This document shows, piece by piece, positions 1,649 to 47,913 of a stretch of DNA of 64,000 bases (its first letter is position 1; each line of letters begins with the position of its first letter). The position numbers and the translations under genes were made by a program. The stretch covers positions 70,786 through 134,785 of the forward strand of contig CAOKAE010000001.1 of NCBI GenBank assembly GCA_948466335.1. The letters are read 5' to 3'. Source of the DNA: an uncultured Coriobacteriia bacterium. Lineage in GTDB: Bacteria; Actinomycetota; Coriobacteriia; Coriobacteriales; QAMH01. Below the pieces are notes generated by a model. It saw nothing but the letters and a program-made list of their open reading frames with translations. It searched no databases and was not told the DNA's origin.

Positions 1649-2200
1649 ATGTCAACTGATTTCATCGCCATCGGGCAGCGCATCCAGGGCATTCGCGAGG
1701 CCTGCGACGTCACGCGCGAGGATATGGCAGCCGACCTCGACGTCGATCTGGAGACCTACACCAAGTGGGAGGAGACCGGCGCCGACGTGCCCATCTCGGC
1801 CATCTATCACATGGCCAACCGCTTCGGCATCGAGTTCACCGAGATCCTGACGGGCAAGTCGGGACACCTCGACACCTTCCATCTCATCAAGGCGGGCGAG
1901 GGTCGCGAGGTCGACCGTATCCCCGGCTACCACTTCGAGGACCTGGCCTGGCGCTTCACGCAAAAGGACTTCCAGCCGCTGCTCGTCACGCTCGACCCCC
2001 ACGACGAGCCCGCTGAGCTCGTCGACCACCGCGGCCAAGAATTCAACTACATCCTCGAGGGCTCCATCGTCTTCACCTTCGACGACCGCGAAATCATCCT
2101 CGATGCGGGCGATTCCATCTTCTTCAATCCGGAGCACATGCACGGGCAGCGCTGCAACGGCGACGTACCCGCCAAGTTCCTCACCATCATCAGCGAATGA
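1649..2200 (+). CDS. XRE-family HTH plus cupin transcriptional regulator
   Basis: N-terminal HTH (IGQRIQGIREACDVTREDMA...YTKWEE); cupin (HRGQEFNYILEG...GDSIFFNPEHMHG); stop TGA lies inside a REP copy. Confidence 0.9.
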   Translation: MSTDFIAIGQRIQGIREACDVTREDMAADLDVDLETYTKWEETGADVPISAIYHMANRFGIEFTEILTGKSGHLDTFHLIKAGEGREVDRIPGYHFEDLAWRFTQKDFQPLLVTLDPHDEPAELVDHRGQEFNYILEGSIVFTFDDREIILDAGDSIFFNPEHMHGQRCNGDVPAKFLTIISE

Positions 2201-2230
2201 GACAAATGTGTCTGACCAATTTGTCTCATT
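2196..2230. repeat. 35-bp REP-like palindrome (family A)
   Basis: aatgagacaaatgtgtctgaccaatttgtctcatt; TGA 2198-2200 is the regulator's stop codon. Confidence 0.95.
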
Positions 2231-2267
2231 AACGACAGGAACCAGCAAGGAAAGAACAGGAAAGACC

Positions 2268-3941
2268 GTGGACTACATACTCAAGAAATACTGCCCCCGC
2301 ATCGAGTTCGACTCCTACGAGGACTTCTATGAGAACTTCCGGATAGAGGTGCCCGAGAACTTCAACTTCGCCTACGACGTCGTTGACGAGTGGGCGCGCG
2401 TCGAACCCGAGAAGAAGGCCCTCGTGTGGATCAACGACGCCGGCGAGGAACGTACCTTCACGTTCACGGACATCTCGCGTCTCTCGAACCGCGCGGCCAA
2501 CGCGTTTTGGCAGCTCGGCATCCGCAAGGGCGACGTCGTCATGATGATGCTGCGCCGCCGCTGGGAATACTGGGTGTGCGCGGTGGCGCTCGCCAAGATC
2601 GGTGCCTCGATCATCCCCGCGACCATCCAACTCACCTCGAAGGACATCGCCTACCGCGCGAATTCCGCCGACGTGAAGATGGTGATTTGCGTTGACGACG
2701 ACTACGTGGTCGAGCAGGTGGAAGGCGCGCTGCCCAACGCCGCGAGCATCAAGGACAAGGTGCTCGTCGCCGGCACGCACGAGGGTTGGCTGTCCTTCGA
2801 CGAGCTCATCGAGGGTGCGAGCGACGAGTGGGAGCGCCCCACGGGAGACGCCGCCACGTCCATCGACGACATAATGCTCATCTACTTCACGAGCGGCACG
2901 ACCGGCAACGCCAAGGCCGTCGAGCACAGCTTCAAGCACCCGCTGGGCCACATCCTCACCGCCAAGTACTGGCAGCAGGTGCGCGAGAATCACCTGCATA
3001 TGTCCGTGACCGACAGCGGTTGGGCCAAGTTTGGCTGGGGCAAGATCTACGGCCAGTGGATCGCCGGCGCGACGATCTTCTGCTACGACATGGACAAGTT
3101 CATACCTGCCAAGCTGCTGCAGGTCATGCAGGACTACGACCTCGCGACGTTTTGCGCGCCGCCCACCATGTATCGCTTCATGCTGCAGGAAGACGTCTCG
3201 GCCTACGACCTCTCGTCCATCGAGAACTTCGCGACCGCGGGCGAACCCCTCAACGGCGAGGTGACCATCCAATGGGAGAAGCTCACGGGTAAGAAGATCC
3301 GCGAGGGCTTTGGCCAGACGGAAGGACCCGTGCTGCTAGCCACCTATCCGTGGATCGAGCCACGCCCCGGTTCCATGGGCAAGCCGAGCCCGCTGCTCAA
3401 CATCAAGCTCCTCGATGATGACGGCCGCGAAGTCGACGATGGTAGCGAAGGTGCTATCTGCGTCACGGGCCTCAAGGAAGCCTATCCGCCGGGCCTGTTC
3501 GTGGGCTACTACAACGAGCCCGAGCGCACGGCTGAGGCCGTGGGTGGCGAGTACTACAACCTGCACGACATGGCGTGGCGCGACACCGATGGGTACTGCT
3601 TCTTCGTGGGTCGCAACGACGACGTCATCAAGTGCTCCGGCTACCGCATCGGCCCCTTCGAGGTGGAAAGCGCGCTCGTGGCGCATCCGGCTGTCGTCGA
3701 GTGTGCCGTCACCGCCGCTCCCGACCCGGTGCGCGGCAAGGTCGTGAAGGCGTCCATCATCCTCGCGAAGGGCTACGAGCCGAGCGACGAACTCACCAAG
3801 GAGCTGCAAGACCACGTCAAGCACACGACGGCGCCGTACAAGTACCCGCGCATCGTGGAATATGTCGATGACCTGCCCAAGACCATCGGTGGCAAGATCA
3901 AGCGCAAGATGATCCGCAACGCCGACGGGGTTACGGACTAA
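2268..3941 (+). CDS. acyl-/acetyl-CoA synthetase (AMP-forming)
   Basis: YFTSGTTGNAK, EGFGQTE, GRNDDVIKCSGYRIGPFEVES, LPKTIGGKI; GTG 2268 preferred because the upstream extension is REP-derived. Confidence 0.9.
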   Translation: MDYILKKYCPRIEFDSYEDFYENFRIEVPENFNFAYDVVDEWARVEPEKKALVWINDAGEERTFTFTDISRLSNRAANAFWQLGIRKGDVVMMMLRRRWEYWVCAVALAKIGASIIPATIQLTSKDIAYRANSADVKMVICVDDDYVVEQVEGALPNAASIKDKVLVAGTHEGWLSFDELIEGASDEWERPTGDAATSIDDIMLIYFTSGTTGNAKAVEHSFKHPLGHILTAKYWQQVRENHLHMSVTDSGWAKFGWGKIYGQWIAGATIFCYDMDKFIPAKLLQVMQDYDLATFCAPPTMYRFMLQEDVSAYDLSSIENFATAGEPLNGEVTIQWEKLTGKKIREGFGQTEGPVLLATYPWIEPRPGSMGKPSPLLNIKLLDDDGREVDDGSEGAICVTGLKEAYPPGLFVGYYNEPERTAEAVGGEYYNLHDMAWRDTDGYCFFVGRNDDVIKCSGYRIGPFEVESALVAHPAVVECAVTAAPDPVRGKVVKASIILAKGYEPSDELTKELQDHVKHTTAPYKYPRIVEYVDDLPKTIGGKIKRKMIRNADGVTD

Positions 3942-3975
3942 GCTCAGATTGAGGGCTGGCTCTCAATCTGAGCTT
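3940..3975. terminator. hairpin between convergent genes, probable bidirectional terminator
   Basis: aagctcagattgag-N8-ctcaatctgagctt, 14-bp perfect stem. Confidence 0.6.
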
Positions 3976-3995
3976 GTCCTCCACGGTTAAATTGG

Positions 3996-4469: not shown

Positions 4470-4471
4470 GG

Positions 4472-7137: not shown

Positions 7138-7172
7138 AATGAGACAGATTTGTCTGACCAATCTGTCTCATT
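7138..7172. repeat. 35-bp REP-like palindrome (family A)
   Basis: aatgagacagatttgtctgaccaatctgtctcatt, intergenic. Confidence 0.95.
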
Positions 7173-7199: not shown

Positions 7200-8261
7200 T
7201 TAGATGAGGGCCATTTGCTCCGCACAGGTGCTATACCAATGGCCGGCGTTGGAGGGACAGTACGTAGCAGCGGCCTCGCGCGTGAGATAGCCGCCGTACA
7301 ACGACCCGCCGAGCGCGGAAACGACCCTGTTGATGCCCTCTTCCCATGAGCCGAAGCTGTAGCTGCCGTATCCCCATGCGTTGTGCGAGCGGAAGCACGC
7401 AGCACCCTTGCTGCTCTCGACATAGGAGATGGCCGGTGCCCAGCGCGGGTCGACGCCGTTATCCCAGGCGGCAGCCGCGTAGTACTCGCCCGTGCCGGCC
7501 ATGGGCGAACCCGAGAGGTACGCGTCGATGCGCGGTGCCCAGCTATCGACGAAATCGGCCTTGTCAGCCGACCATCCCACATGGGAGGCGCTTGCCGACG
7601 ATGCCGCGCTGCTTGCCGCGCTTGCAGCCTGCTTTTCCTCGGCGCTGGCCGAGGAGGAGTTGATGACGTACTGGTTTGCCTGCTGCTCGGCGGCCTGCGC
7701 CGCGGCGGCCCGTGCCGCCACGCGCTCGCGAGCCTCGCGGGCCTGCTGCAGCGACGCGAGTGCGTCCTGCGCCGCCTGGTCCGCGCCCGCCTTGTCGCTT
7801 TCGAGCTGCTGCCTGGCGTTCTTGAGCTCGGATTCCATCTGGATGGCGTTCTGGATTTCCGCCGTGTTGTACTCGAGGATCCAATTGTAGGAATCGACGA
7901 TGGCCAACATGTCGGTGACGCTCGTGGACTCGAGCAGCATCATGAGGATGCTCGACGAATCGTACTCGTACTTGTAGAGCGCCCGCACGCTCTCGTCGGA
8001 GCGCTCGCGCTGTGCGGGGAGCTTGGCTTCGAGCTCGGCAATGCGGGCGTCGAGCTGCGCTATCTCGGACGCAAGCTCCTCCTGGCGCGAGATGGCGTCG
8101 TTATAGGCATCGGCGCTCGACTTGACCTGCGCCTCGAGCTCTTCTGCTTCTTCGTCTGCGATGGATGTCTGCACAAACCCGCTGCCGACAAGGCCGAACA
8201 CCAGCGCGATTAGGGATGCAAGCGCCAGGACGATGCCTCGGTTGAGTGCGTGTTGCAGCAA
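7200..8261 (-). CDS. secreted coiled-coil protein with C-terminal lysozyme/glucosaminidase-like domain (putative cell-wall hydrolase)
   Basis: Signal peptide, PcsB/CwlO-like coiled coil, then GVDPRWAPAISYVESSKG...HNAWG. Confidence 0.7.
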   Translation of the reverse strand: MLQHALNRGIVLALASLIALVFGLVGSGFVQTSIADEEAEELEAQVKSSADAYNDAISRQEELASEIAQLDARIAELEAKLPAQRERSDESVRALYKYEYDSSSILMMLLESTSVTDMLAIVDSYNWILEYNTAEIQNAIQMESELKNARQQLESDKAGADQAAQDALASLQQAREARERVAARAAAAQAAEQQANQYVINSSSASAEEKQAASAASSAASSASASHVGWSADKADFVDSWAPRIDAYLSGSPMAGTGEYYAAAAWDNGVDPRWAPAISYVESSKGAACFRSHNAWGYGSYSFGSWEEGINRVVSALGGSLYGGYLTREAAATYCPSNAGHWYSTCAEQMALI

Positions 8262-9799: not shown

Positions 9800-10375
9800 C
9801 TAGGCGTTGACGATGGGCCTGATGATGCCGTAGCCGCCGTTCTTGCGATGGTAGATGACCTGGACCTGATGGGCATCCTGGTCGAAGTAGACGAAGAAGT
9901 CATGGCCGAGCAGGTCGGTCTGCACGAGGGCGTGCTCCTCGGTCATGGGCTCCATCTCGACTTCCTTCAGGCGTACGAGCAGATCATCGTCTTCCTCGGG
10001 CTCGGTGGGAATGACATCGGGGATGTCGAGCTCTTCGGGCTGGAGGTGACGGATGGTGCTCCTGCCGCCGCGACGCTCGACGAGACGCGTCTTGTACTTG
10101 CGCAGCTGGCGGGCGACCTTGTCGGAGGCCAGGTCGATGGCCGCGTACATGTCCTCGGCGGATTCTGCCACGCGGATGACGGCGCCCTTGGCGTTGACCG
10201 TGACCTCGCAGATGGCGTTGAGCGAGATGGCCGGGTTCTTCTCGGTGCGCAGGACGACTTCGGCGTCCATGGCGGCGCTATCGAAGACCTCGAGCGAGCG
10301 GGCGATCTTCTCGTCGACGTAATCCTTGATGGCAGGGGTGACGTTCATCTTTCGCCCTGAAACTGTAATAGCCAT
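9800..10375 (-). CDS. hpf: ribosome hibernation factor (long HPF/RaiA)
   Basis: ITVSGRKMNVTPAIKDYV, DMYAAID...RQLRKYK, C-terminal LLGHDFFVY...YHRKNGGYGII. Confidence 0.94.
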   Translation of the reverse strand: MAITVSGRKMNVTPAIKDYVDEKIARSLEVFDSAAMDAEVVLRTEKNPAISLNAICEVTVNAKGAVIRVAESAEDMYAAIDLASDKVARQLRKYKTRLVERRGGRSTIRHLQPEELDIPDVIPTEPEEDDDLLVRLKEVEMEPMTEEHALVQTDLLGHDFFVYFDQDAHQVQVIYHRKNGGYGIIRPIVNA

Positions 10376-11438: not shown

Positions 11439-11688
11439 GCGCTCCTCCCAACTGACCTGGTTTTTGACCCCACACTCGCATACAGAAACTTTTGCCTGAT
11501 ACTATCTCACTACTCATTTTCTCGCCCGGGCCACCGTATGTGACCTTAACGGACGGTACGTCTTACCCCTAAGATGCGCCATGCTCACGTCCGGGAAACC
11601 CCGTACGCTTACGTGGATCCTTTCGACCGCATCTGCCTTGGACTAGAGCCGTTTTACCAGCTCGCAACCACAGACTTGGGAGGAGCAC
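11439..11688 (-). ncRNA. raiA motif structured RNA
   Basis: Closing stem GTGCTCCTCCCAA/TTGGGAGGAGCGC. Blocks UGUGGUUG, GAUCCACGUAAG, UGAGCAUGG, CUUAGNNGUAAG, GGCGAGA, AGUAGUGAGA and GCGAGUGUGGGGUCAAANACCAGGUCA occur in the order I recall for raiA RNAs. Lies upstream of the binding protein and hpf/raiA. Confidence 0.85.
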
Positions 11689-11722: not shown

Positions 11723-13939
11723 CTAGATTCTCCGCAAAACAAAACAATGATGGACCTTGGCGTGACGCTCGAAATCCAACGGTATGGTCTTGTCGGTGAT
11801 GTCCACAACCTGCACGCCCGCGCGCTCGATCGTCTCACGATCGAGCTTGAATCCACGCAGATTACACGAGAAGACAGCGGCACCGCCACGGGTCAACAGT
11901 CGGCTCACGCCGATGAGCAGTTCCGCATGGTCGCGTTGCACGTCCCATCCGCGTTGGCGCATCTTCGCGGAATTCGAGAAGGTGGGAGGGTCGACGAAGA
12001 TGAGGTCCCAACGCATCTTGGTGTGCCGCGTCTGGGTGACCCATTCGACGCAATCGGCGCGGATGAACTCCTGATGGCCGTTCATGAGGCCGTTGAGCTC
12101 CATGTTGCGCTCGCCCCATTGCAGGTAAGTGTTCGAGAGGTCGACGCTCGTCGTGAACTTCGCCCCGCGTGCGGCGGCATAGACGCTGGCCGTGCAGGTG
12201 TAGGCGAAGAGGTTGAGGAAGCTCTTGCCCGCGGCGAGCTTGCCGACCAGCTCGCGCGTGTCGCGATGGTCGAGAAACAGGCCCGTGTCGAGATAGCTCG
12301 CGAGGTCCACCTCGAAGAGCAGTCCGTTCTCCTGCGTGACGAGTGCCCCTGACCGGGCAAATGAGACAGATGTGTCTGACCAAACTGTCTCATTTCTTGC
12401 GTACTGCGAGCCGCCCTTGGCCCGAACGCGGCGCTTCACGAAGATGTCGTCCGCGGGAACGTCGAGCACGACGCTCGCGATGTTGAGGGCGTCGGCCATG
12501 CGGCGCGCGGCCTTGCCGACATCGATGTTCTTGGGGGGCGCGTACTCGGCAACGTGCACGAGGCGTCTGCCCGCATCTGCGCCCGCGCCCTCGTAGAGGT
12601 CGATGGCCATGTTGTAGTCGGGTAGATCGGCATCGTAGACGCGAAAGGCCGAGACCTTGTTCTTGGTCGCCCATTTGCGGCGCTGCTTGAAGACCTTGTT
12701 GAGACGGTCGGCAAATTGCTGGGCACCCGCGTCGTAAACCGCGATGTCGCAATCGCGCACGTTCGCCTGCGTCCGTTGCCCCGCACTCGCATGCAGGTCG
12801 AAGAGCGCGATATCGCAGGGAGCAGAGCCGTTCATGCACGCAAAGCCCTCGCTGCGCTCCATGCCCAGGTAGGCATCGGCATCTTGGCTGCCCACGAGCA
12901 TGACGGCCGCATCGAGCTGCGTGTAGCCGAGGAGTTGACGCGCGAGCTGCGCATAGCATGCGGGCAGCGTCGCCTCGGGAACCTCGGCGGTGACGAAGAG
13001 GCAGCTCGCGAACACGCCGCGAACATCATGGTGCCGCGCGAGCGCGGCGTCCAGCGCGTTTTCGTCCGCCAGAAACTCGATGAGGGGTGCCACGGCGGCG
13101 GCCTTGGCTCGGGCTTGCGCGCAGGCTATCTCTCGTTTGCGCGGGTCCGTCGCGTATATCGCGATCGCGCGCCGTCCCTCTTGCGCACGGACGTCGGCTG
13201 CGTCGAGAGCGGCTTCCCAAAGCCCCTCGTCGTGACCGGACCATCCGGTAAAGCCCCAGTTGGAGCGCGTGATACCCGGAGCTATGTCGGCTGCTATCAA
13301 GGCGGCCTCGATGGCGAGGGTGCCGGCAGCGCTCATGCTATCCACGAGCAATTCGCCACGGCGCGCGCGTTCGGGCCAGCCAATCGCAAGCAGCATGCCC
13401 GCCGCAAGCGTCTCGTGCACGAATGGGGAGGTGCTTCGCGCGGCATCGCGATAGCCGCGATCCTCCAGCGACGTGCCCGACAGGTCGAGGTAGATGGTCG
13501 CGCGGTTGCCACGCAGGTTCACCTGGATGCGCAGGTCGGGGTGCTGGGCGTCAACGTCCGGACGTTCGCCGCGCACGTCACGCAGCCGGTCGCAGATAGC
13601 GTCCTTCACGCGCAACGCCGTATAGCGGGTGTCGCGCAACTGGTCGTTGGTGCCACGGGCGCTTACGGCGATGGTCGCCCCCGCGGCAACGTGATCCTCC
13701 CAGGCAAGCCCGTGCACGCCCGCGTAGATGCTATCGGAATCCGACGCCTTGACGCGTTCGACCACCAGGAGGATGCGACTCGCGACGCGCGACCACAGCA
13801 AGGCGGTGTAGACCTGCTCCAAGCTCGCCGCAAACGCGACGCCGCCGGTCAGGGGGCGAACCTCGTCCATTCCGAGGTCACGCAGCTCCTGACCGAGAAT
13901 CGGCTCGAGCCCGCTGCCGCATGTCGCGAAGAGCTCCAT
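11723..13939 (-). CDS. rlmL: bifunctional 23S rRNA methyltransferase RlmKL
   Basis: THUMP-containing N-terminal half (LWSRVASRIL); C-terminal FRVYDADLPDY, YLDTGLFLDHR, LNLFAYT, DPPTFSNS. Confidence 0.9.
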   Translation of the reverse strand: MELFATCGSGLEPILGQELRDLGMDEVRPLTGGVAFAASLEQVYTALLWSRVASRILLVVERVKASDSDSIYAGVHGLAWEDHVAAGATIAVSARGTNDQLRDTRYTALRVKDAICDRLRDVRGERPDVDAQHPDLRIQVNLRGNRATIYLDLSGTSLEDRGYRDAARSTSPFVHETLAAGMLLAIGWPERARRGELLVDSMSAAGTLAIEAALIAADIAPGITRSNWGFTGWSGHDEGLWEAALDAADVRAQEGRRAIAIYATDPRKREIACAQARAKAAAVAPLIEFLADENALDAALARHHDVRGVFASCLFVTAEVPEATLPACYAQLARQLLGYTQLDAAVMLVGSQDADAYLGMERSEGFACMNGSAPCDIALFDLHASAGQRTQANVRDCDIAVYDAGAQQFADRLNKVFKQRRKWATKNKVSAFRVYDADLPDYNMAIDLYEGAGADAGRRLVHVAEYAPPKNIDVGKAARRMADALNIASVVLDVPADDIFVKRRVRAKGGSQYARNETVWSDTSVSFARSGALVTQENGLLFEVDLASYLDTGLFLDHRDTRELVGKLAAGKSFLNLFAYTCTASVYAAARGAKFTTSVDLSNTYLQWGERNMELNGLMNGHQEFIRADCVEWVTQTRHTKMRWDLIFVDPPTFSNSAKMRQRGWDVQRDHAELLIGVSRLLTRGGAAVFSCNLRGFKLDRETIERAGVQVVDITDKTIPLDFERHAKVHHCFVLRRI
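12360..12394. repeat. 35-bp REP-like palindrome in frame within rlmKL
   Basis: aatgagacagatgtgtctgaccaaactgtctcatt encodes NETVWSDTSVSF on the minus strand. Confidence 0.95.
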
Positions 13940-15981: not shown

Positions 15982-16016
15982 AATGAGACAAATTGGTCAG
16001 ACAAGTTTGTCTCATT
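15982..16016. repeat. 35-bp REP-like palindrome (family A)
   Basis: aatgagacaaattggtcagacaagtttgtctcatt, 2 bp from the pncB stop. Confidence 0.95.
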
Positions 16017-16018: not shown

Positions 16019-17479
16019 CTAATCGTAAAGCGAGCTGTTTCTGCCCGTGGCGATTACCATGTCGTTGCGCCTCTGGAAAAGGCCGCGTTCGATGCCGCAG
16101 GGATATTCGTGCGGGTTCATGAAGCGCTTGATCGAATCGTCCAGAAGCGCGAGTTGCCCGACGCATCTCTCGCGCGCGCTTTGGGCCGAGATGTCGACGT
16201 CGTTGACCCTGCCGTTGCTCACGAGCGGCTTGAGCAGCGTCTCGAAGCGCCCCTCCACCTTCTTGCGGCGCGTCGCGTCGAGCGGGTCGACCATGACGGC
16301 GTCCGCGGGCACGTCGTCGTTCACGTCGATGATGAGGTCGCCGGCCAACCGTCCATCGGCATCGAAGTAGCGACGCACGTCGAGCACGCCGGGGATGGTG
16401 CGCTTGTAGAGCTGCTCGGAAATCTTGAGACGCGGGCTCCACGCGTCCTGCCCCGGCTCGCGGATGGCGGAAAGCTTGTAGACGCCACCGAGGGCCGGCT
16501 GCCCGTAGGCGGCCGCCAGGTGCGTTCCCACGCCGAGGGACGTGTACTGGGCTTTCTGATCGTTGAGCGACATGATCGTGTACTCGTCCAGGTCGTTGGA
16601 GAGCACGATGCCCACGTCGAAGAGCCCGGCCATGTCGAGCATGGACCGCGCCATCTTGGAGAGCCACGCGAGGTCACCGGAATCGATACGGATAGCCTGG
16701 AGCTTGTGGCCGCTCCGTTCCAGCTCGCGGGCGACGATGATGGCGTTTTTCACACCCTGCTCCACGTCGTAGGTGTCCACGAGCAGCGTGCAGTTGTCGG
16801 GCATCTCGGCCGCGTACGCCCTGAAGGCGGTGAGCTCGTCGGGAAACGACATGACCCACGAATGCGCATGGGTGCCGCCAACGGGAATGCCGTAGCGCTT
16901 GCCCGCGAGCACGTTGGCCACTGAAGCGCACCCGCCCACGTAGGCGGCGCGCGATGCCGACATCGCGCCATCGGGGCCTTGCGCGCGGCGCAGACCGAAC
17001 TCGGAGACGGGGCGTCCCTCGGCCGCCTTGCAGATGCGCGCGGCCTTGGTCGCGATGAGCGTCTGGAAGTTGATGCCGTTGAGGATGGCCGGCTCGAGCA
17101 GCTGGCATTGCAGCAGCGGGCCGGTCACGCGCACAAGCGGCTCGCGCGGGAAGACGGGGGAGCCCTCCGGCACGGTGCAGATGTCGACCGACAGCTCGAG
17201 CTGGCGCAACCAGGCGAGGAAGTCGGGATCGAACAGCGGCGTCTTTGCCGCGGTGGTCAGGGACGCGAGGTACTCGATGTCGTCATCGGTAAAGCCGAAG
17301 CCATCGACGAGCTCGGCGATCTGGTTGGCGCCGCAGAAGACGCCGTACCCTCCCCCGAAGGGGTTGTCGCGATAGAACGAGTAGAAGCACGCCTCGGTGT
17401 CGAGCTTGCCTTGCGACCAGTAGCCCTGGGCCATCGTGATCTCGTAGAGATCGGTCAGCAGCGTCATGTTGCGTGCCAT
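16019..17479 (-). CDS. pncB: nicotinate phosphoribosyltransferase
   Basis: LLTDLYEITM, EFGLRRAQG, GTHAHSWV, LVDTYD, IRIDSGDL, ALGGVYKL. Confidence 0.95.
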   Translation of the reverse strand: MARNMTLLTDLYEITMAQGYWSQGKLDTEACFYSFYRDNPFGGGYGVFCGANQIAELVDGFGFTDDDIEYLASLTTAAKTPLFDPDFLAWLRQLELSVDICTVPEGSPVFPREPLVRVTGPLLQCQLLEPAILNGINFQTLIATKAARICKAAEGRPVSEFGLRRAQGPDGAMSASRAAYVGGCASVANVLAGKRYGIPVGGTHAHSWVMSFPDELTAFRAYAAEMPDNCTLLVDTYDVEQGVKNAIIVARELERSGHKLQAIRIDSGDLAWLSKMARSMLDMAGLFDVGIVLSNDLDEYTIMSLNDQKAQYTSLGVGTHLAAAYGQPALGGVYKLSAIREPGQDAWSPRLKISEQLYKRTIPGVLDVRRYFDADGRLAGDLIIDVNDDVPADAVMVDPLDATRRKKVEGRFETLLKPLVSNGRVNDVDISAQSARERCVGQLALLDDSIKRFMNPHEYPCGIERGLFQRRNDMVIATGRNSSLYD

Positions 17480-29490: not shown

Positions 29491-29512
29491 AGCGACCCGC
29501 CCTATTACGACT

Positions 29513-29602: not shown

Positions 29603-29621
29603 TCACAAAAGGAGGTCCGAG

Positions 29622-30272: not shown

Positions 30273-30357
30273 GACAAATTGGTCTGACCAGTTTGTCTCA
30301 TTTTTTCATGGTACCAGTTGATAATGAGACAATTTGGTCTGACACGTTTGTCTCATT
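30268..30357. repeat. REP doublet between convergent hypB and ahcY
   Basis: Copies 30268-30302 (hypB TGA 30270-72) and 30323-30357 (overlaps the ahcY TAA). Confidence 0.95.
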
Positions 30358-31615: not shown

Positions 31616-31681
31616 GGCTTCCTCCTCGGTAAATAGCTGTGGCACATACTACCACGCGGCAAAATTGACGATAGCATGACA

Positions 31682-31716
31682 AATGAGACAGATTTGTCTG
31701 ACAAGATTGTCTCATT
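31682..31716. repeat. 35-bp REP-like palindrome (family A)
   Basis: aatgagacagatttgtctgacaagattgtctcatt. Confidence 0.93.
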
Positions 31717-32009: not shown

Positions 32010-32042
32010 AATGAGACAAATACCCTGTGTATTTGTCTCATT
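32010..32042. repeat. REP variant with 14-bp perfect stem and no TGTCTGACC core
   Basis: aatgagacaaatac-cctgt-gtatttgtctcatt. Confidence 0.85.
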
Positions 32043-35402: not shown

Positions 35403-35419
35403 ATGAGACAGTGTCTCAT
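35403..35419. repeat. collapsed REP (arms only) supplying the feoB stop
   Basis: atgagaca-g-tgtctcat; TCA at 35416-35418. Confidence 0.8.
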
Positions 35420-37623
35420 GCGGCGGCCTTCACCGCCTTGCGCACTTGCTCGGGCGCGGCAGGCTTGCTTGCCGGGCGAAAGAGCATCCAGAACAGGGCT
35501 GCCAAAAAGACGACGGCGACGATGGTGCCGAGCGTGAACGCGCCGGTCACTACCCATGCGCCAATTTGGAAGATGATGAGCGCGACAACGTAGGCGAATC
35601 CGCATTCCCAGCCGATGGCGGCCCAGAACCACTTGTTGAAGCCGCCCATCTCGCCCTTGATGGCGCCCATGGCCGCGAAGCACGGCGCGCAGAGCAGCTG
35701 GAAGGTCATGAAGGCGAAAGCCGCGACGGGAATGAGCGCGGCCGAGCCGGCACTCGCCGCAAGCGACGCCAGATAGGCGCTTTCCCAGGCCACGCCTGCG
35801 TCGCCACCATAGACGATGGCCAGCGTGGAGATGACGTTCTCCTTCGCGATGAGGCCAGTCACGACGGTGGAAGCGCACTCCCAATTGCCGAAGCCGAGCG
35901 GCGCGAAGACCCACGCGAAGGCGTTGCCGAAGTACGCGAGGAACGAATGGTCCATGAGCTCCTCGCCCACCCACATGAATTGGCCTTCGTAGATGCCGTA
36001 GCCCGAGAGGAACCACACGACGATGGTGGCGAGCAGGATGATGGTGCCGGCCTTCTTGATGAACGCCCAGGCGCGATCCCACATGCTGCGCAGCAGGTCG
36101 ACGAAACGCGGAAGACGGTACTCGGGGAGCTCCATGACATAGGGCGTGACTTTGCCCATGAAGGGCCTGGTCTTGTGCAGGATGACGCCCGATACGATGA
36201 TGGCCGCGATGCCCATGAAGTACGCGAGCGGGGCGACCCACCACACGCCGCCAAAGACCGCCGTCGCGATGAGCGCGATGATGGGAAGCTTGGCGGAGCA
36301 GGGCATGAAGGTCGTGGTCATGACCGTGAGGCGGCGGGCGCTCTCGGATTCGATAGTGCGCGATGCCATGATGCCCGGCACGCCGCATCCCGTGCCCACG
36401 ATCATGGGCACGAAGGTCTTGCCGGACAGCCCGAAGCGCCGGAAGAGACGGTCGAGGATGAAGGTGACGCGCGCCATGTAACCGCACGACTCGAGGATGG
36501 CGAGCAAGAAGAAGAGGATCATGATCTGCGGCACGAAACCGAGCACGGCACCCACGCCGGCAACGATACCGTCCATGATGAGGTCGTAGAGCCAGTCGAC
36601 GCAACCCACGGCCTCGAGCGCGGCCCCGATGATGGCGGGGATACCGGGAATCCACAGACCGCTTTCCTCGGCACCAAGCCACCATCCATCACCGAAGACG
36701 CCGTCGTTGGCCCAGTCGGTTGCGTAGGTGCCGACCGTGGAAATGGAGATGTAGTAGATGAGCGTGATGATCACGACGAAGATGGGCAGTGCCAGGATGC
36801 GGTTGGTGAGGACGCTGTCGACCTTCTCGGAAACGGTCGCGCCCGAGATGGCCCGCTTGTGCACGCGCTTGATGAAGCTCTCGATATAGCGGTAGCGTTC
36901 GTTGGTGATAATGGCGTCGGAGGAGTCGTCGAAAAGGCTCTCGGTCTCGAGGATGAGGTCGTCGCAGTTGACCTTGGTTCCCAGCTCGGCGATGGCGTCC
37001 TGATCGCGCTCGAAGAGCTTGATGGCGTAGTAGCGGCGCATCTCTGCCGGCATGACGCTCGGAAGCTTGTCCTCGATCTTGGCAAGGGCAGCTTCGAGCT
37101 CGGAGGCAAACTGGACCGGTTGCGGCATGATGCCATCGCGGGTCGCCTTGACCGTGGTGGCCACGAGGTCTTCGAGGCCGTCACCCCTGAGCGCCGATAT
37201 CTCGACGACGGGAACCTGCAGCTGCTCGGAGAGCTCCTTGGACTTGATGGTGTAGCCGCGCTTCTTCACGATATCCATGAGGTTGAGCGCGACCACGACA
37301 GGAATGCCGAACTCCATGAGCTGCGTGGTCAGGTAGAGATTGCGCTCCAGATTGGACGCGTCCACGATGTTGATGATGACGTCGGGGTGGCCGTCGGTCA
37401 GGTAGTTGCGGGAGATGACCTCCTCGCTCGAATAGGGCGACAGCGAATAGATGCCCGGAAGGTCGACGAACTTGATGCTCTTGTCGTTCTTCAGATGCCC
37501 CGTCTTGCGCTCGACGGTGACGCCGGGCCAATTGCCGACGTACTGATGATTGCCCGTGAGCTGGTTGAACAGCGTCGTCTTTCCTGAATTGGGGTTGCCC
37601 ACCAGCGCGATGGTCGTTTCCAT
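35416..37623 (-). CDS. feoB: ferrous iron transport protein B
   Basis: GNPNSGKT, GNWPGVTVE, DLPGIYSL, SCGYMAR, GCGVPG, PCFAA. Confidence 0.96.
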   Translation of the reverse strand: METTIALVGNPNSGKTTLFNQLTGNHQYVGNWPGVTVERKTGHLKNDKSIKFVDLPGIYSLSPYSSEEVISRNYLTDGHPDVIINIVDASNLERNLYLTTQLMEFGIPVVVALNLMDIVKKRGYTIKSKELSEQLQVPVVEISALRGDGLEDLVATTVKATRDGIMPQPVQFASELEAALAKIEDKLPSVMPAEMRRYYAIKLFERDQDAIAELGTKVNCDDLILETESLFDDSSDAIITNERYRYIESFIKRVHKRAISGATVSEKVDSVLTNRILALPIFVVIITLIYYISISTVGTYATDWANDGVFGDGWWLGAEESGLWIPGIPAIIGAALEAVGCVDWLYDLIMDGIVAGVGAVLGFVPQIMILFFLLAILESCGYMARVTFILDRLFRRFGLSGKTFVPMIVGTGCGVPGIMASRTIESESARRLTVMTTTFMPCSAKLPIIALIATAVFGGVWWVAPLAYFMGIAAIIVSGVILHKTRPFMGKVTPYVMELPEYRLPRFVDLLRSMWDRAWAFIKKAGTIILLATIVVWFLSGYGIYEGQFMWVGEELMDHSFLAYFGNAFAWVFAPLGFGNWECASTVVTGLIAKENVISTLAIVYGGDAGVAWESAYLASLAASAGSAALIPVAAFAFMTFQLLCAPCFAAMGAIKGEMGGFNKWFWAAIGWECGFAYVVALIIFQIGAWVVTGAFTLGTIVAVVFLAALFWMLFRPASKPAAPEQVRKAVKAAA

Positions 37624-37661
37624 ATCGTGCTTCGTTCCTCTCCTTGTTGGTACCTGTTGCT

Positions 37662-37707
37662 CATGAGACAGTTTTGTCTGACCAATTTGTCTCAAATTTG
37701 TCTCATT
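37662..37707. repeat. REP with tandem-duplicated right arm
   Basis: catgagacagttttgtctgacc followed by aatttgtctca twice and tt. Confidence 0.88.
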
Positions 37708-37708
37708 T

Positions 37709-41942: not shown

Positions 41943-42032
41943 AATGGACACCGGCGGTCTACTGCTGCTGTCACATTATCGACATGTGCCGGCAGCAAAT
42001 GAGACAAATGTGTCTGACCAATTTGTCTCATT
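41943..42032. repeat. REP doublet (first copy strongly decayed)
   Basis: aatggaca...tgtcacatt 41943-41977, 20-bp linker, intact copy 41998-42032. Confidence 0.85.
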
Positions 42033-42053: not shown

Positions 42054-44021
42054 CTACTTCACGCCATGCCAGCCGACGCCCTCGTCCTTCCAGCCTATGG
42101 ATAGCAGCGTCTGGAACTCGCCCCAGTCGAGCGTGTAGTGGTGGTTGTTGGCGAACGCGTTGGGGTTGTAGGCGCGGTACAGGGGCACGGCCTCGTTGGG
42201 GTCGGAGTACCAGCCTCCCTCCTCCCAGGTCCAGCCCACGCCCACGAGCATGTCGCGCTCGGCCTCGCTGGAGGTGTAGTGGTGCTCTCCGGCAAACGAG
42301 TTGTAGAGGCGGTAGACCTTGATGCCCTCGGTCGGCGCCGTCCAGCCCACGCCCTCGTCGTTCCAACCGGCCGCGATCACGGCGTCTCGCTCGACGGGAC
42401 TCGAGGTGTAGAAGTGCTCGCCGGAGTTGGGGTTGTAGAGGCGATACATGGTCTCGGTGCCCACGGGTTGCGGGTCGGTGGGGGTGGGATCCGGATTCGA
42501 CGGTTGCGATGGCGTGCTCGGATTCGAGGGGTTGCTCGGCTGCGAAGGATTGGAAGGGTTGCTGGGGGCGTCGGGGTCGTAAATCCTATATGTCGCCTTT
42601 AGCGTTCCGGTGTAGTTGCCTCTGCCCTGCGCAGTAATTTCATAGGTTCCGGCAGGACCGGCATTTGCAGGAAAAACAACGCTTATGTCTTCGTCACCCG
42701 CGCTGAAACTGTAATATGTTCCAATTTTCTCTGCTCCAGAATATACGTAAACTGTTGGGTACCGCGCCGCCTGGTGAGACCACATCTCAAACGAATCTTG
42801 ACTAAGCTCAATGCGAGTCAGGGCCTTGGGCTTGATTGTATACGTTGCCTGCACGGTGCCCGACAAATCGCCCTTTCCTTGAACGGTTATCGTATACGTC
42901 CCTGCATCCTTCTTATATTTATCACCGCTGATTGTCACGTATCTTGACGAGCCAGTTAATGAGAGGTCCTTCTCGATGAGAGTATTTCCTGCATAAACGG
43001 AAACGGTCGGCTCGCATCGTGAACCGGAGTACTCGTACTCTGTCTGGCTCAGCTCTACTCGAGTGATTTCAGTTGGGGTGGCTGAGACTGTAAAGATGTA
43101 GTGATCTCGCCAGACGCTCCCAGACTGCATAACAAAGTAATAGGTTCCGGCTTCAAGACGACCGCAGTTTACAGTGGTCCTATTCTCACCTGAAAGTGTG
43201 TTTCCCTGCTTGAATGCCACCTGAGACGTGCTCTTTGTCACCTCGTAATGCATCTTTCCGCGAGTAAGCAAATCAACATTTACCAAACTTGGCGAATCAA
43301 TATGAAAAGAGTAGATGTCGATATCGGACAGACCCATCGGTTTGCCATTCAGGAAGACTTCGCCATCGGGATCGTATGCCATTCCCGTGTAGACCTGCCC
43401 TAGCTTAACGGGCGTGGCGGTGCTCATGGTGTCATTGGGCTCTATCTCAATTTCTGCGTCCAGGTCTGCAGATGGACACGAGATACCCGCACGCAAAGTG
43501 GCCTCACATTGGGCTTGTAGCCTGAAACTATACTTTCCCGTGCCGAGGATAAACGGACCAAATGATGCCGTAGCGGTGTTATGGGCAATATCCCAATCTG
43601 CAATTACCTTGCCGGCACCATCCTCCAAAATCGCGTGGAAAGAATTGCCGCTACTTAGAGAATTTGTCTGCTGGAACACAAGACCCGAGAAGGACGTTCC
43701 CTGGACGCTAAAGTTTACCTTCACCTCTTGTCCTTGAGACAGGTTATAAGGGCCTGCGGTTTCCCCGTCCTTTAGGGTGATATCTTTCACGGTTGAGCGT
43801 GCCTCAATCGCAAATGCGCTAATGGAATTATCATCAGGCGTAAACGACAAGCTATCGGGTGAATATTGATATGTAATATCATCCAAGACATGCGACGTGT
43901 TTGTCATTGCTTCTGTTTCGCTGCTTGAATCTGAAGAATCCCCTGCAGCCGCAAACGCCGTGATGGGCATCATGCCGAGGGCAAGCGCCAATGACAGGGA
44001 CACTAACGAGAGTTTCCGCAT
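42054..44021 (-). CDS. secreted surface protein with beta-rich domains, Pro/Ser linker and three C-terminal RLYNPN repeats (DUF5648-like)
   Basis: Signal peptide; EIEPNDT; GTYTITVQGKG / GTYEITAQGRG repeats; YRLYNPNSGEHFYT, YRLYNSFAGEHHYT, YRAYNPNAFANNHHYT. Confidence 0.85.
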   Translation of the reverse strand: MRKLSLVSLSLALALGMMPITAFAAAGDSSDSSSETEAMTNTSHVLDDITYQYSPDSLSFTPDDNSISAFAIEARSTVKDITLKDGETAGPYNLSQGQEVKVNFSVQGTSFSGLVFQQTNSLSSGNSFHAILEDGAGKVIADWDIAHNTATASFGPFILGTGKYSFRLQAQCEATLRAGISCPSADLDAEIEIEPNDTMSTATPVKLGQVYTGMAYDPDGEVFLNGKPMGLSDIDIYSFHIDSPSLVNVDLLTRGKMHYEVTKSTSQVAFKQGNTLSGENRTTVNCGRLEAGTYYFVMQSGSVWRDHYIFTVSATPTEITRVELSQTEYEYSGSRCEPTVSVYAGNTLIEKDLSLTGSSRYVTISGDKYKKDAGTYTITVQGKGDLSGTVQATYTIKPKALTRIELSQDSFEMWSHQAARYPTVYVYSGAEKIGTYYSFSAGDEDISVVFPANAGPAGTYEITAQGRGNYTGTLKATYRIYDPDAPSNPSNPSQPSNPSNPSTPSQPSNPDPTPTDPQPVGTETMYRLYNPNSGEHFYTSSPVERDAVIAAGWNDEGVGWTAPTEGIKVYRLYNSFAGEHHYTSSEAERDMLVGVGWTWEEGGWYSDPNEAVPLYRAYNPNAFANNHHYTLDWGEFQTLLSIGWKDEGVGWHGVK

Positions 44022-45090: not shown

Positions 45091-45125
45091 AATGAGACAA
45101 TTTGGTCAGACAAACTTGTCTCATT
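45091..45125. repeat. 35-bp REP supplying the stop of the PLP decarboxylase gene
   Basis: aatgagacaatttggtcagacaaacttgtctcatt; TCA at 45121-45123. Confidence 0.95.
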
Positions 45126-46305
45126 TTCGTGGTGTGTTGAGCGTGCTCGTCTCGATGAAGTCGCGGGCAAGCTCGCTGCCGCCATCATAGCGCAAGACCA
45201 CGCGTGGCATCGTGCGGCTCAGGAACAGGTGCACGCCTTCGGTCACGGAATACGCGCCGGCGTTGGCAAACGCGAGCACGTCATCGAGCTGCAAGCTGTC
45301 GAGCTCGACCTCGCGCACGAGCACGTCGTTGACGGTGCAGAGGCTGCCGCAAAGCGTCCAGGCACGCGCGTCTTGCTCGCGCATCTGGTCGGCAAGCGCC
45401 GAGAGATTGACAAGCGCAGGCACCTTGAGGCCCATGATCTGCCCCGCATAGGTGAGGTGGTTGATGCCACCGTCGAGGATGCAGTAGCTCGTGCCCTCGT
45501 TCTCCTTGAGGTCGGCGACGCGGGTGAGGTAGGTGCCGCAGGACGCGGCAAAGAAGCGGCCCATCTCGACCGTGAGCTCCACCTCCTTCGCAAGCTCGCG
45601 AAGGTGCGGAGCCAACTCGCGGGCCGGGGCGAGGTCGTCCGTGAAGTCGTCGTCGGCGAAGTACGGCACGGCCAAGCCGGGACCGTACTCGAGACGCTGC
45701 ACCTCGAAGCCATGCTCGAGCTCGATGTCGGCAATGAGGGCGCGGAGCTTCTCGAGCTCGCGTGCCTGATGCTTGAGCTTCTTGCGCTGCGTGCCCACGA
45801 AATAGTGCAGGCCTACGATGTCGAGGTGCGGGTACTTCGTGCGGCGGTCGATGATGGCGAGGAGATCATCTTTCGACATGCCAAACTGGCTGCCGGCGTT
45901 CAGGCGTAGCAGCACCTCGACCTTCGTGTTCGCCCGTGCGGCGCACTGCTCGATAATCTCGACGTGGCGCACGCTCTCGGCTGTGAGCACGCCAACGCGA
46001 TAGGCAATGGCACGGCTCACGTCCTCGACCTGCTTGTTCACGCCCGAATACACGATCTGGTGCGCGGAGATGCCCACGTCCTCGCAGATGGCGAGCTCGC
46101 CGGGGCTGCACACCTCAAGGCGAGTGCCGTGGTCGGCCGCTGCGGCCGCGAGAAAGGGGTTGGCCTTCATCGCGAAGCACAGGCGCACGTCCTCGCCGAA
46201 GATGTCGGCAATCTTGTCGAGACGCCGCCAGAACGCCTCCACATCGAGGACGAAGGCGGGAGTGCCATACTCCTTGGCTATTTCGAGCAGCTCACCCTGA
46301 TTCAT
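45121..46305 (-). CDS. PLP-dependent decarboxylase, fold III (LysA/ornithine decarboxylase-like)
   Basis: YGTP, FAMKAN (PLP Lys), EVCSPGE, HYFVGTQ, EMGRF, GSLCTVND, AGAYS. Confidence 0.85.
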   Translation of the reverse strand: MNQGELLEIAKEYGTPAFVLDVEAFWRRLDKIADIFGEDVRLCFAMKANPFLAAAAADHGTRLEVCSPGELAICEDVGISAHQIVYSGVNKQVEDVSRAIAYRVGVLTAESVRHVEIIEQCAARANTKVEVLLRLNAGSQFGMSKDDLLAIIDRRTKYPHLDIVGLHYFVGTQRKKLKHQARELEKLRALIADIELEHGFEVQRLEYGPGLAVPYFADDDFTDDLAPARELAPHLRELAKEVELTVEMGRFFAASCGTYLTRVADLKENEGTSYCILDGGINHLTYAGQIMGLKVPALVNLSALADQMREQDARAWTLCGSLCTVNDVLVREVELDSLQLDDVLAFANAGAYSVTEGVHLFLSRTMPRVVLRYDGGSELARDFIETSTLNTPRK

Positions 46306-46321
46306 GCTGGTACCTCCACAA

Positions 46322-46356
46322 AATGAGACAAATGTGTCTGACCAGATTGTCTCATT
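46322..46356. repeat. 35-bp REP abutting the adenylation-gene stop
   Basis: aatgagacaaatgtgtctgaccagattgtctcatt. Confidence 0.95.
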
Positions 46357-47856
46357 CTACATGTCGAGGAGGGCCTGGCGGTCGATCTTGCCGTTCTTGT
46401 TGAGCGGCATGGCGTCGAGCTTGCGAATCTTGTTGGGGACCATGTACTGCGGCAGAATCTCCTTGAGCGCGTCGGCCAGCGCGTCCTTCTCGCAGGGGCC
46501 CACGTAGAACAGGAGGATGCGCTTCTTGCGCGCGTCGTAGACCGTGCAGGCGCGCTTCACGCCGTCGACGCCATGAGCCGCCGCGTCGACCTCGCCGAGC
46601 TCGATGCGTTGCCCCAGGTGCTTGATCTGGTGGTCCTTGCGCCCACGATACACGAGACGTCCCGCCTCGTCGAACGTGGCCATGTCACCCGTGCGATACA
46701 TCGTCTCGGGAAACGCCGTCGTGAGCGGGTTTTGCACGAAGGACTCGGCAGTCTTCTCGGCGTCGTTGTAGTAGCCGAGGGCCAGACAGGTGCCGACCAC
46801 ACAGATTTCACCCTCGTCACCGGGCATGTCGACGAGCTGGTCGTCTTCGTCGAGCAGGAAGACGCGCTCGTTCGGGAAGGGACGGCCCATGGGTATGGTC
46901 TCGTCCTTGTCGTAATCGCGCACGATGATGTGATAGGTGCAGTTGCACGTGACCTCGGTGGGACCATACACGTTGACGAACATGGCATCGGGCAGGGCCG
47001 CGCGCCAGACGGCGAGCTGCTTGGGCGGCATGACCTCGCCGCTGAAGATGACCGCGCGAATGGTCGTGGGCACGCGATAGTCGAAGCCGCCCATCATCGA
47101 GACGAAGCACATGGCGCTCACGGCCCAGGTGCAGACCGTGACCTCGCGCTCCACGAGGAAGTCCATGAGGTTCACGGGGACGCTGAAGTACTCGCGCGGA
47201 ATCATCTGCACGGTCGCGCCGGTGGCAAGACCGCCGTAGATATCCTTGACCGACACGTCGAAGTCGAACGGAGCCTGGTTGGCGAGCACGTCCTCTTTCG
47301 TGATGTCGAAGATCGAAACGAACGAGCCGATGAAGTCGATGACGGAGCGATGGCTCACGGCAACGCCCTTGGGGACGCCCGTGGAGCCCGAGGTGAAGTT
47401 GATGTATAGCGGGTCTGTGTCGAGCGCGGCGGCGCGGCGGCGAGCAAGCAGGCCGCTATCAGAACGCGTATCGACGATATCCTCGAGGCATATAACCAGA
47501 TAGCCGTCGAAGGCCTCCCATGCGGCGTCGAAGTTCTTGGCGTCGGCTATCACGAGCGGAGCGGCGAGCTTGTCGACGATGGCGCGGGCGCGCGACGCGG
47601 GCTGGCGCACGTCGATGATCGAATAGCAGCAGCGTGCGTAGACGGCGCCGAACATGGCCGTGAGGGCGAGGGTGCTCTTCTCCATGTAGCAGGCGATGGG
47701 GCTGCGCTCGTCGACGATGCCGGCGAGGTAGGAACCGACGGAGTGGGCGCGGCGCATGAGGTCGAGAAACCCAATTTCGCCGTTCTCGTCCGCGAACGCG
47801 ACCTTATCCGGCAACTCCCGCGCCCGCGCTTCGAGCCACTCGAGTACGTTAGTCAT
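46357..47856 (-). CDS. stand-alone amino-acid adenylation enzyme (DltA/NRPS A-domain-like)
   Basis: YINFTSGSTGVPKG, FDFDVS, NVYGPTE, YRTGD, GRKDHQIKHLGQRIELGE, NKNGKIDR. Confidence 0.9.
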   Translation of the reverse strand: MTNVLEWLEARARELPDKVAFADENGEIGFLDLMRRAHSVGSYLAGIVDERSPIACYMEKSTLALTAMFGAVYARCCYSIIDVRQPASRARAIVDKLAAPLVIADAKNFDAAWEAFDGYLVICLEDIVDTRSDSGLLARRRAAALDTDPLYINFTSGSTGVPKGVAVSHRSVIDFIGSFVSIFDITKEDVLANQAPFDFDVSVKDIYGGLATGATVQMIPREYFSVPVNLMDFLVEREVTVCTWAVSAMCFVSMMGGFDYRVPTTIRAVIFSGEVMPPKQLAVWRAALPDAMFVNVYGPTEVTCNCTYHIIVRDYDKDETIPMGRPFPNERVFLLDEDDQLVDMPGDEGEICVVGTCLALGYYNDAEKTAESFVQNPLTTAFPETMYRTGDMATFDEAGRLVYRGRKDHQIKHLGQRIELGEVDAAAHGVDGVKRACTVYDARKKRILLFYVGPCEKDALADALKEILPQYMVPNKIRKLDAMPLNKNGKIDRQALLDM

Positions 47857-47913
47857 GAGAGACGCTTTCTCGTCAGACGGGTTTTTGCCTCATTTGCTGA
47901 CAGGTGTCTCATT
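47854..47913. repeat. decayed REP remnants; last arm supplies the NhaC stop
   Basis: catgagagac...gtcagac...tgcctcatt, plus tgtctcatt at 47905-47913. Confidence 0.6.

Follow-up and report, generated by a model that had tools for sequence, protein, structure and literature searches.

The DNA considered here is a stretch of 64,000 nucleotides (nt) from an uncultured Coriobacteriia bacterium (assembly GCA_948466335.1, contig CAOKAE010000001.1, positions 70,786 to 134,785), referred to below as the window. It corresponds to C1:70786-134785 of a genome (G000) of 1.89 Mb in 35 contigs with 61% GC, and it is dense with copies of a palindromic unit of 35 nt, A-ATGAGACA-N17-TGTCTCAT-T. A preliminary description of the window had claimed that a TGA in the arm of this repeat is the stop codon of eight genes. 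This is confirmed: in the HTH/cupin, RAYT, NhaC-1, mtnA, hypB, feoB, PLP decarboxylase and NhaC-2 genes, the first in-frame stop of a long open reading frame (ORF) lies within an arm, and all eight have Pfam matches. The name RAYT is used here for a gene encoding a protein that resembles the tyrosine transposases associated with repetitive extragenic palindromes (REPs). Six of the eight stops belong to full copies, feoB ends in an arms-only remnant of 17 nt, and NhaC-2 ends in a solo arm.

Several genes end at a copy without using its TGA. The ahcY stop, a TAA, overlaps a unit by 2 nt, the stop of the AMP-binding (adenylation) gene is 0 nt from a 35-nt unit and that of pncB is 2 nt from one, all as previously described. 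A comF stop was also placed near a copy, but comF is not identifiable, as a ComF-type match was obtained for none of the 27 window ORFs scanned. The doublet 24964-25051 closes two convergent genes at once, as had been pointed out, and the doublet 30269-30356 does the same with the hypB TGA and the ahcY TAA. The features are collected in Table 1.

Table 1. Repeat copies in the window and the genes that they close, adjoin or interrupt (positions are those of the window).
Feature	Position	Strand	Remarks
Full 35-nt unit	2196-2230		HTH/cupin gene (1649-2200, +) stops at the left-arm TGA, 2198-2200
Full unit	7138-7172		Flanked by the TauE gene start and by ORF 7200-8261, whose stop is 29 nt off; identical in G001
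Unit within RlmKL-like methyltransferase gene (11723-13939, -)	12360-12394		Open frame AAT-GAG-ACA, interdomain linker; also in G001
Full unit	15982-16016		2 nt after pncB stop (TAG, 16019-16021)
Doublet, 55-nt spacing	23643-23732		Precedes the RAYT-like gene by about 490 nt
RAYT-like Y1 (HUH) transposase gene	24218-24967	+	249 amino acids, HFH and YIHKNP motifs; stop (24965-24967) supplied by an arm TGA of the doublet that follows
Doublet	24963-25052		Closes convergent RAYT (TGA 24965-24967) and NhaC-1 (minus-strand TGA 25048-25050)
NhaC-1, Na_H_antiporter	25048-26373	-	Pfam match; stop is arm TGA
mtnA (name from the preliminary description; IF-2B family)	26282-27625	+	Pfam match; stop is arm TGA
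Doublet, opposite loop orientations	27621-27710		Left-arm TGA 27623-27625 is the mtnA stop
Degenerate and full copy	29514-29602		Upstream of hypB ribosome-binding site
hypB, CobW/HypB	29580-30272	+	Pfam match; stop is arm TGA
Doublet, entire hypB-ahcY intergenic region	30268-30357		hypB TGA 30270-30272; ahcY TAA (minus strand, 30356-30358) overlaps the other arm by 2 nt
Full unit	31682-31716		Between two gene starts
Copy of the 31-nt-core loop type	32010-32042		Loop such as AATACCCTGTGTATT
Arms-only 17-nt remnant, ATGAGACA-G-TGTCTCAT	35403-35419		Minus-strand TGA 35416-35418 is the feoB stop
FeoB gene	35416-37695	-	Pfam match
Unit and extra partial arm	37662-37708		Adjoins feoB start
Full unit with CATTCCGCAGGTCA tail	41998-42032		23 nt from DUF5648 gene stop
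Full unit	45091-45125		Minus-strand arm TGA 45121-45123 is the PLP decarboxylase stop
PLP decarboxylase (Orn/DAP/Arg decarboxylase)	45121-46305	-	Pfam match
Full unit	46322-46356		Abuts TAG stop of AMP-binding gene (46357-46359)
Degenerate 39-nt copy and solo arm (47905-47913)	47855-47913		Solo-arm minus-strand TGA 47909-47911 is the NhaC-2 stop
NhaC-2, Na_H_antiporter	47909-49609	-	Pfam match
Diverged doublet	55878-55967		Follows gyrA stop (TAG) by 18 nt; G001 has lost the spacer, and a TAA there overlaps the arm

A search of the whole genome with the pattern ATGAGACA-N0-24-TGTCTCAT, allowing at most one mismatch per arm, found 127 copies, against 0 in a reversed-genome control; 23 of the 127 lie inside the window, which makes up 3.4% of the genome. 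The cores fall into two main lengths. In the 33-nt type (81 copies) the loop holds GTCTGAC or its complement, and in a second type of 31 nt (37 copies) loops such as AATACACAGGGTATT or AATACCCTGTGTATT are found; the remaining nine copies have other lengths. The 127 copies form 106 clusters, 85 singlets and 21 doublets, the latter with a spacing of 55 nt and a linker centred on GGTACC. Position-by-position flank counts of 68 oriented copies show that A-ATGAGACA ... TGTCTCAT-T is conserved, and a subset of copies has longer complementary tails, TGACCTGC-NN-...-NN-GCAGGTCA (also ...CATT-NN-GCAGGTCA). The predicted fold of a singlet has a stem of 12 base pairs (-13.7 to -17.6 kcal/mol). The doublet at 27621-27710, with its opposite loop orientations, is predicted to form a single long hairpin (-59.2 kcal/mol, z -9.9); in doublets such as 23644/23699 and 24964/25019 the loops of both units are oriented alike. 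Contigs C5 (12-44) and C23 (54-86) open with a repeat copy in the first 90 nt. Since the repeats thus probably break the assembly, the copy number is a lower bound.

What kind of element is this? Outside called genes lie 101 of the 106 clusters, and the other five are in frame within genes. In the flank counts of the 68 oriented copies, no GTAG or CGTC tag is seen at the repeat ends. Target-site duplications give no systematic signal: the longest word common to the flanks on the two sides (20 nt each) has a mean length of 4.10 nt, compared with 3.83 nt for mismatched pairs, and a direct repeat of at least 7 nt flanks a cluster in 3 of 105 cases. A miniature inverted-repeat transposable element (MITE) moved by a DDE transposase was considered and set aside, as flanking duplications are not systematic. 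A 9-nt direct repeat on either side of the copy at C11:37331 is a single unexplained case. Intrinsic (Rho-independent) terminators were considered as well. A T-run (at least four T within 9 nt after the arm) occurs at just 10 of 254 copy sides, and therefore the repeats are not standard intrinsic terminators. At Rfam gathering thresholds, the window yielded only a raiA RNA and two tRNAs, with no match on the repeats. The raiA match (157 bits; 11443-11684, minus strand) lies upstream of a gene for an S30AE-family ribosome hibernation factor (9800-10375). The family is filed as REP/REPIN-type palindromic repeats with a RAYT-like gene.

The association with stop codons extends far beyond the window. 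Genes were called by a codon-usage model trained on this genome (best-start version), which gave 1582 genes and a coding density of about 88%; 843 of them end in TAG, 371 in TAA and 368 in TGA. That TAG is the commonest stop is unusual at 61% GC. The 101 intergenic clusters have 200 sides, 118 facing the 3' end of a gene and 82 facing a 5' end. At 29 of the 118 sides facing a 3' end the arm TGA is the stop, and at six more a TAA overlaps the arm by 2 nt; the count of 29 omits RAYT, which the gene caller missed, and NhaC-2, which has a solo arm. By comparison, the 35 other offsets between -6 and +30 hold 1.46 sides on average and 7 at most, giving a Poisson P of 1.5e-27 for 29, and uniform placement of clusters in each gap predicts 2.8 to 7.6 overlaps. 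Among TGA stops, 36 of 368 have GAC as the next trinucleotide; the figures are 4 of 371 for TAA and 21 of 841 for TAG (1-2.5%). Solo or degenerate arms account for five more arm-derived stops, and a single 31-nt copy (C33:5213-5243) closes two convergent genes. Altogether about 35 genes, roughly 9% of those terminated by TGA, take their stop from a mobile-type repeat.

Could such overlaps arise from nothing more than short intergenic regions and loose ORF calling? The genome is compact, any ORF that reads into an arm in the appropriate frame will end there whether it is genuine or not, and one member of the 29, C16:3-713 (coding score 16, no Pfam match), is probably spurious. The overlap counts already contradict this explanation, which is highly improbable: 29 stands against 1.5 per neighbouring offset and against 2.8 to 7.6 under uniform placement, so that the genome-wide overlap is well above what short gaps would give, the comparison that the preliminary description had asked to be made. 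Moreover, 23 of the 29 genes lie outside the window, 20 of these were scanned and 18 have a Pfam match, in addition to the eight of eight in the window; the three that were outside the Pfam scan, on C33, have conserved orthologues. The stops of orthologues, too, fall on the same codon or close to it.

Reading of a called gene through a copy at its 3' end was observed in neither of the open frames. The five copies inside genes (window 12361-12393, C4:71194, C4:99871, C9:17653 and C18:23877) all read AAT-GAG-ACA, and each adds about 12 residues, NETxVSDxxVS[F/L], with coding signal on either side. A cluster is present in 27 of the 169 gaps between convergent genes, compared with 63 of 1217 between unidirectional and 9 of 161 between divergent genes (chi-square P 5e-7). 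For the most part the repeats lie directly past gene 3' ends, the median distances being 11 nt from 3' ends and 64 nt from 5' ends. Two other interpretations of the TGA were examined and rejected. One is a tandem backup stop: of the 51 copies lying 1-30 nt past a native stop, 13 have their arm TGA in frame, not above one third, and therefore there is no sign of selection for such a function. The other is reassignment of TGA; it aligns with the TAG or TAA stops of orthologues.

Twelve genomes of the same genus (G001-G012), which are syntenic with the window at 83-97% DNA identity, allow gene ends with and without the repeat to be compared. One of them, G009, has no such repeats in the 9-kb stretch scanned, nor at the gene ends compared. 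The comparison covered 15 G000 genes that end in an arm TGA, from the window, C2, C16 and C33. Where orthologues are free of the repeat, they carry in most cases a native TAG or TAA. It had been suggested that alignment to orthologues would tell whether the stop pre-existed or the C-terminus had changed; both situations were encountered. In 6 of 15 genes the protein end is unchanged (mtnA, HTH/cupin, feoB, a 748-amino-acid methyltransferase on C2, an AIRC-family gene on C16 and a LysR gene). In the first five of these a native TAG or TAA occupies the same codon in REP-free relatives, and in the LysR gene REP-free relatives end in a native TGA. The HTH/cupin orthologues, for example, retain ...TIISE before the stop, and the REP-free G009 has GAG TAG at this point.

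In the other 9 of 15 genes the tip of the protein differs, the range being from a longer tail in the REP-free relative to one residue added or a changed last residue. The hypB product has gone from ...QIEAAK to ...QIEK and that of a PucR-like gene from ...QPE to ...QPAK, each followed by the stop; RAYT has gained one residue, the tails of NhaC-1 and NhaC-2 are cut at points that vary by species, and four small genes on C33 show -1 to +1 residue or an altered last residue. For the PLP decarboxylase, the arm TGA is the stop in five of five matching relatives too. Other loci present what look like successive distances between stop and repeat. At gyrA, a TAG and a spacer of 17-21 nt precede the repeat in G000, G004 and G010, and G001 reads TA-ATGAGACA. 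The AMP-binding gene ends in ...LLDM with a TAG abutting the repeat in G000 and G001, and in ...LLDIK closed by the arm TGA in G004 and G005. In the G005 cupin gene the arm TGA is now TAA, so that the stop is retained and one stem pair is broken.

These observations can be brought together with the anatomy of the unit. Both arms end in AATGA, and a gene entering from either side reads NAA-TGA in one of three frames, giving K, E or Q as the last residue and then the stop, or a TAA if T precedes the arm. As the stop is present in both arms, genes arriving from either side are closed. We consider it probable (about 0.6) that the repeats settle at gene ends and that the native stop is lost afterwards, the arm TGA acting as a backstop, and not that stop codons are targeted. 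A copy would first come to lie beside or within the final codons of a gene. Small deletions or overwriting would then remove the native stop and the spacer, perhaps preferentially where the native end (an E or K codon and the stop) resembles the end of the arm. At gene ends only fusions in the TGA frame would survive, and the fused state would consequently accumulate as an end point, with the protein usually unchanged or changed just at its last residues. Because the stop is inside a predicted hairpin stem, a terminating ribosome would have to open this stem. The transcript could carry a protective 3' hairpin that begins at the stop, and gene ends bounded by copies might be exchanged by recombination with their stops kept. 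The backstop reading explains why one offset stands out so sharply, why TAA stops overlap arms, why sister species show intermediate states, why some tips are unchanged and others rewritten, why read-through fusions are absent, and why there are solo-arm and arms-only scars.

The interpretation offered in the preliminary description is partly supported. It left a choice between an element that takes over the 3' ends of genes and has a stop to offer in each arm, which fits the data, as arms on either side give stops and 9 of 15 tips differ from those of REP-free orthologues, and an element that targets stop codons at an ATGA-like site, which is unsupported as a general rule, as native stops are mostly TAG or TAA and 83 of the 118 sides facing a 3' end are off the stop. 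A weaker form of targeting fares better. Of the 13 native ends that could be defined, 8 have an E or K codon in last place, compared with 20.3% of 1552 other genes (P 0.0014); the set consists of 12 G000 genes and the AMP-binding case and leaves out NhaC-1, NhaC-2 and RAYT. Native ends with a last E or K codon before the stop, which resemble the arm end, are thus over-represented. This enrichment suggests that microhomology may guide the site of fusion.

The same enrichment can be read in another way. Y1 transposases of the IS200/IS605 family insert beside a specific target of 4-5 nt, and a Y1 transposase or a host pathway might here target an ATGA-like or AAT-R-type site, so that the arm TGA is in part derived from the target and stops after an A-rich last codon are merely the commonest harmless instances of it. 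The lack of systematic flanking direct repeats is as expected of a Y1 enzyme. A native TGA in an arm-like context is indeed found in REP-free relatives at C33:6168 (AAATGAGA), at C33:5214 (AACTGAGAC, in G010) and at C2:154462 (GAGTGAG), and at C33:6168 the inserted copy is still followed by the native AATGAG; these three contexts could reflect targeting of such sites or be scars of older copies. In addition, feoB in G002, G004, G005, G007 and G012 has a copy after its stop and then a second copy of the last 9-10 nt of the gene and its stop, a duplication for which simple deletion is insufficient as an explanation. In the relatives with this second gene end, the loop of the copy resembles the reverse complement of the flank. 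Insertion at a specific site is nevertheless unlikely to account for the family. Besides the predominance of TAG and TAA among native stops and the sides that lie off the stop, 82 sides face gene starts, nine clusters lie between divergent genes and five copies are intragenic; orthologous repeats stand at varying distances from the stop in sister species, and G000 and G001 differ mostly by their loops at unchanged junctions, as described below.

The arm-like native TGA contexts and the duplicated feoB end weigh against the backstop reading, and so do several further points. The direction of change was deduced from an unrooted comparison of a few species. The genomes compared offered no example of a recent insertion paired with a clean empty site, and insertion at a stop is therefore inseparable from insertion nearby followed by loss of the spacer. 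With 0 read-through fusions against 29 in the TGA frame, the bias goes beyond what selective filtering by itself would have to produce. The E/K test, besides being small, was devised post hoc, and the gene calls are those of our own caller. Finally, the evidence is that of sequence comparison, transcription, hairpin formation in vivo and any effect on termination all being putative.

How the contents of these sites change can be followed by comparison with G001, where 15 of the 18 window clusters are collinear (loci L013, L014 and L124-L126). Four of the 15 sites have the same loop type, one is occupied by another family and one, at feoB, is empty in G001; at the remaining 9 of 15 the 33-nt type in G000 corresponds to the 31-nt type in G001, several of them with identical junctions. 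Loops thus appear to have been swapped in place at existing copies. Such loop differences at shared sites indicate that the sites predate the split of the species and that their contents were replaced in place, and loop-only differences at fixed junctions speak for replacement at existing copies instead of fresh targeting of stops. The orientation of genes between copies differs among species as well. The block from NhaC-1 to hypB lies the same way round in G000, G004, G006 and G010, and in the partial data for G007, G011 and G012, and is inverted in G001, G002 and G005, the breakpoints being two repeat junctions, as compared over window 24218-31645 and loci L013, L015, L016, L017, L019 and L020. 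RAYT, NhaC-1, hypB and ahcY are intact despite the inversion because each of them ends in or at an arm.

The genus contains several repeat families, including AATGAGACA, TGAGACAG, AATGTGTAA, AACCAGACA and AATGGGACA. Arms reading AATGTGTAA in G002 give NhaC-1 and hypB the ending ...NV followed by the stop. At locus L020 of this genome, covering the ends of NhaC-1, hypB and ahcY, the family AATGTGTAAAAGGG...CCCTTTTACACATT supplies a TAA stop and the ...NV ending to two genes. In other species these gene ends are taken by families whose arms read AACCAGACA and AATGGGACA. A C-terminal DUF5648 domain is present in two genes with a repeat at or near the stop (window 42054-44021 and C1:6293-9112), and many paralogous copies of it are found in G001, G004 and G005.

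Might a stop in a stable stem be a selected function? It could couple termination to protection of the mRNA 3' end or tune expression by stalling the ribosome, or stops in both arms could permit harmless inversions and replacements. The location of the stop in a predicted stem, the preference for convergent pairs (27 of 169 gaps, against 63 of 1217 and 9 of 161), the G005 arm in which TGA became TAA with the stop retained at the cost of a base pair, the inversion that leaves four bordering genes intact and the supply of stops by other sister-species families, such as the AATGTGTAA arms of G002, are all consistent with selection. Against it, the arm TGA past a native stop (1-30 nt) is in frame in 13 of 51 cases and hence not above one third, the AACCAGACA and AATGGGACA families sit at the same gene ends without a stop at the arm end, and protein tips vary freely, as expected of neutral change. 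A selected role seems unlikely. A joint reading, which seems quite unlikely, would be that the family is built to overwrite gene ends, that is, the native stop, the spacer and the terminator of one gene or of two convergent ones; new loop variants would home into existing copies at fixed arms, recombination between copies would invert blocks harmlessly, and a fast-diverging RAYT would change along with the repeat family. If this were true, the stop in a stem would be a selected, translation-coupled 3'-end module of about 2% of the genes in the genome.

A candidate for the mobilizing enzyme is the RAYT-like protein. It scores 55.1 bits against Pfam Y1_Tnp (cut-off 23) and 64.5 bits (E 9e-18) against NCBIfam NF047646, the REP-associated tyrosine transposase equivalog, which is below the cut-off of 80 bits; it is a relative and not a certified NF047646 equivalog. 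Copies flank its gene on both sides (doublets 23644-23731 and 24964-25051), with degenerate copies at 24125-24196. Its nearest homologues in named records, from Collinsella, other Coriobacteriaceae and several Firmicutes, are 38-47% identical, and a second Y1 homologue in the genome, C1:208002-208388, is 33% identical to it. The gene is held at one locus across the genus (G001, G002, G004-G007, G010 and G012), where the protein is 38-58% identical, versus 91-100% for the products of neighbouring genes. Sister species with a diverged RAYT-like gene also bear different repeat families or loop types.

Several consequences follow for work on related bacteria. As the last residues of several genes have been rewritten by a repeat, C-termini and stop usage should be expected to shift with repeat turnover when gut Coriobacteriaceae are annotated or compared. 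The genus also provides a natural series, in which the repeat is absent, 17-21 nt off, abutting or fused and in which loops have been swapped, for studying effects on termination, mRNA decay and tagging by transfer-messenger RNA (tmRNA), and this series can show how REPs spread, a matter still unsettled for RAYT systems.

Comparison with known systems places the present family among REPs and sets it apart in some respects. Liang, Rudd and Deutscher are said to have found in 2015 (Mol Cell) that in Escherichia coli REPs placed no more than about 15 nt from a stop reduce expression by way of ribosome stalling and tmRNA. As in those reportedly stalling REPs, the hairpin predicted here starts within a few nt of the stop; there, however, the gene's own stop is said to lie upstream of the REP, whereas here the stop is within the stem. 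REP/BIME-RAYT (TnpA_REP) and REPIN systems were reportedly treated by Ton-Hoang and colleagues in 2012 and by Bertels and Rainey in 2011. The present family has doublets, one of them predicted to form a long hairpin, and resembles those systems in a gene kept at one locus across the genus; it departs from them in the score of its RAYT-like protein against the REP-associated tyrosine transposase model (64.5 bits, cut-off 80) and in the second Y1 homologue of the genome. According to Nunvar et al. (2010; PMC2817692), REPs stand immediately past the rayt stop and are concentrated near rayt, as in Thauera; similarly, here a Y1 HUH gene has copies on either side, one of them overlapping its stop, and copies are enriched nearby. 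In the classification of Quentin et al. (2018; PMC6006769), subclass 2.1 comprises long TnpA_REP proteins with a C-terminal extension, usually without typical flanking REPs. The protein described here, with 249 amino acids and a C-terminal extension, may fall into this subclass by its length and extension.

The closest precedent is the GTAG-tagged REPs of Di Nocera, De Gregorio and Rocco (2013; BMC Genomics 14:522, PMC3733652). In the accessible text of that article, flanking ORFs obtain a TAG stop from REP termini, REPs are found no more than 20 bp from 3' ends, some are in frame within genes and they are linked to Y1 transposase genes; the stop-supplying effect receives one sentence there and no counts. 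As far as that text describes them, they share with the present repeats the nature of short, high-copy extragenic palindromes, single and dimeric, located mostly in convergent or unidirectional gaps near 3' ends, some in-frame intragenic copies, the link to a Y1 transposase and a terminal triplet that is the stop of the flanking ORF. Unlike them, the repeats here end in AATGA and not in GTAG/CGTC, the stop is TGA, or TAA after T, it is present in both arms, and the host is Coriobacteriaceae-like. The Rickettsia RPEs and intragenic REPs mentioned in the same source (PMC3733652) are likewise in frame within genes, a situation that concerns here a minority of 5 of 106 clusters, the main effect being at the stop. 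A literature search that covered few subscription journals found no report of REPs in Coriobacteriia or of a REP that supplies TGA. The principle of a REP-supplied stop is already known, since the effect of GTAG REPs was reported in 2013 (PMC3733652), and the value of the present case lies in its counts, two-sided design and orthologue series and not in a new principle. What is new here is a TGA-bearing two-sided arm without a GTAG/CGTC tag, the host lineage, the genome-wide counts, the orthologue series and the in-place replacement of loops.

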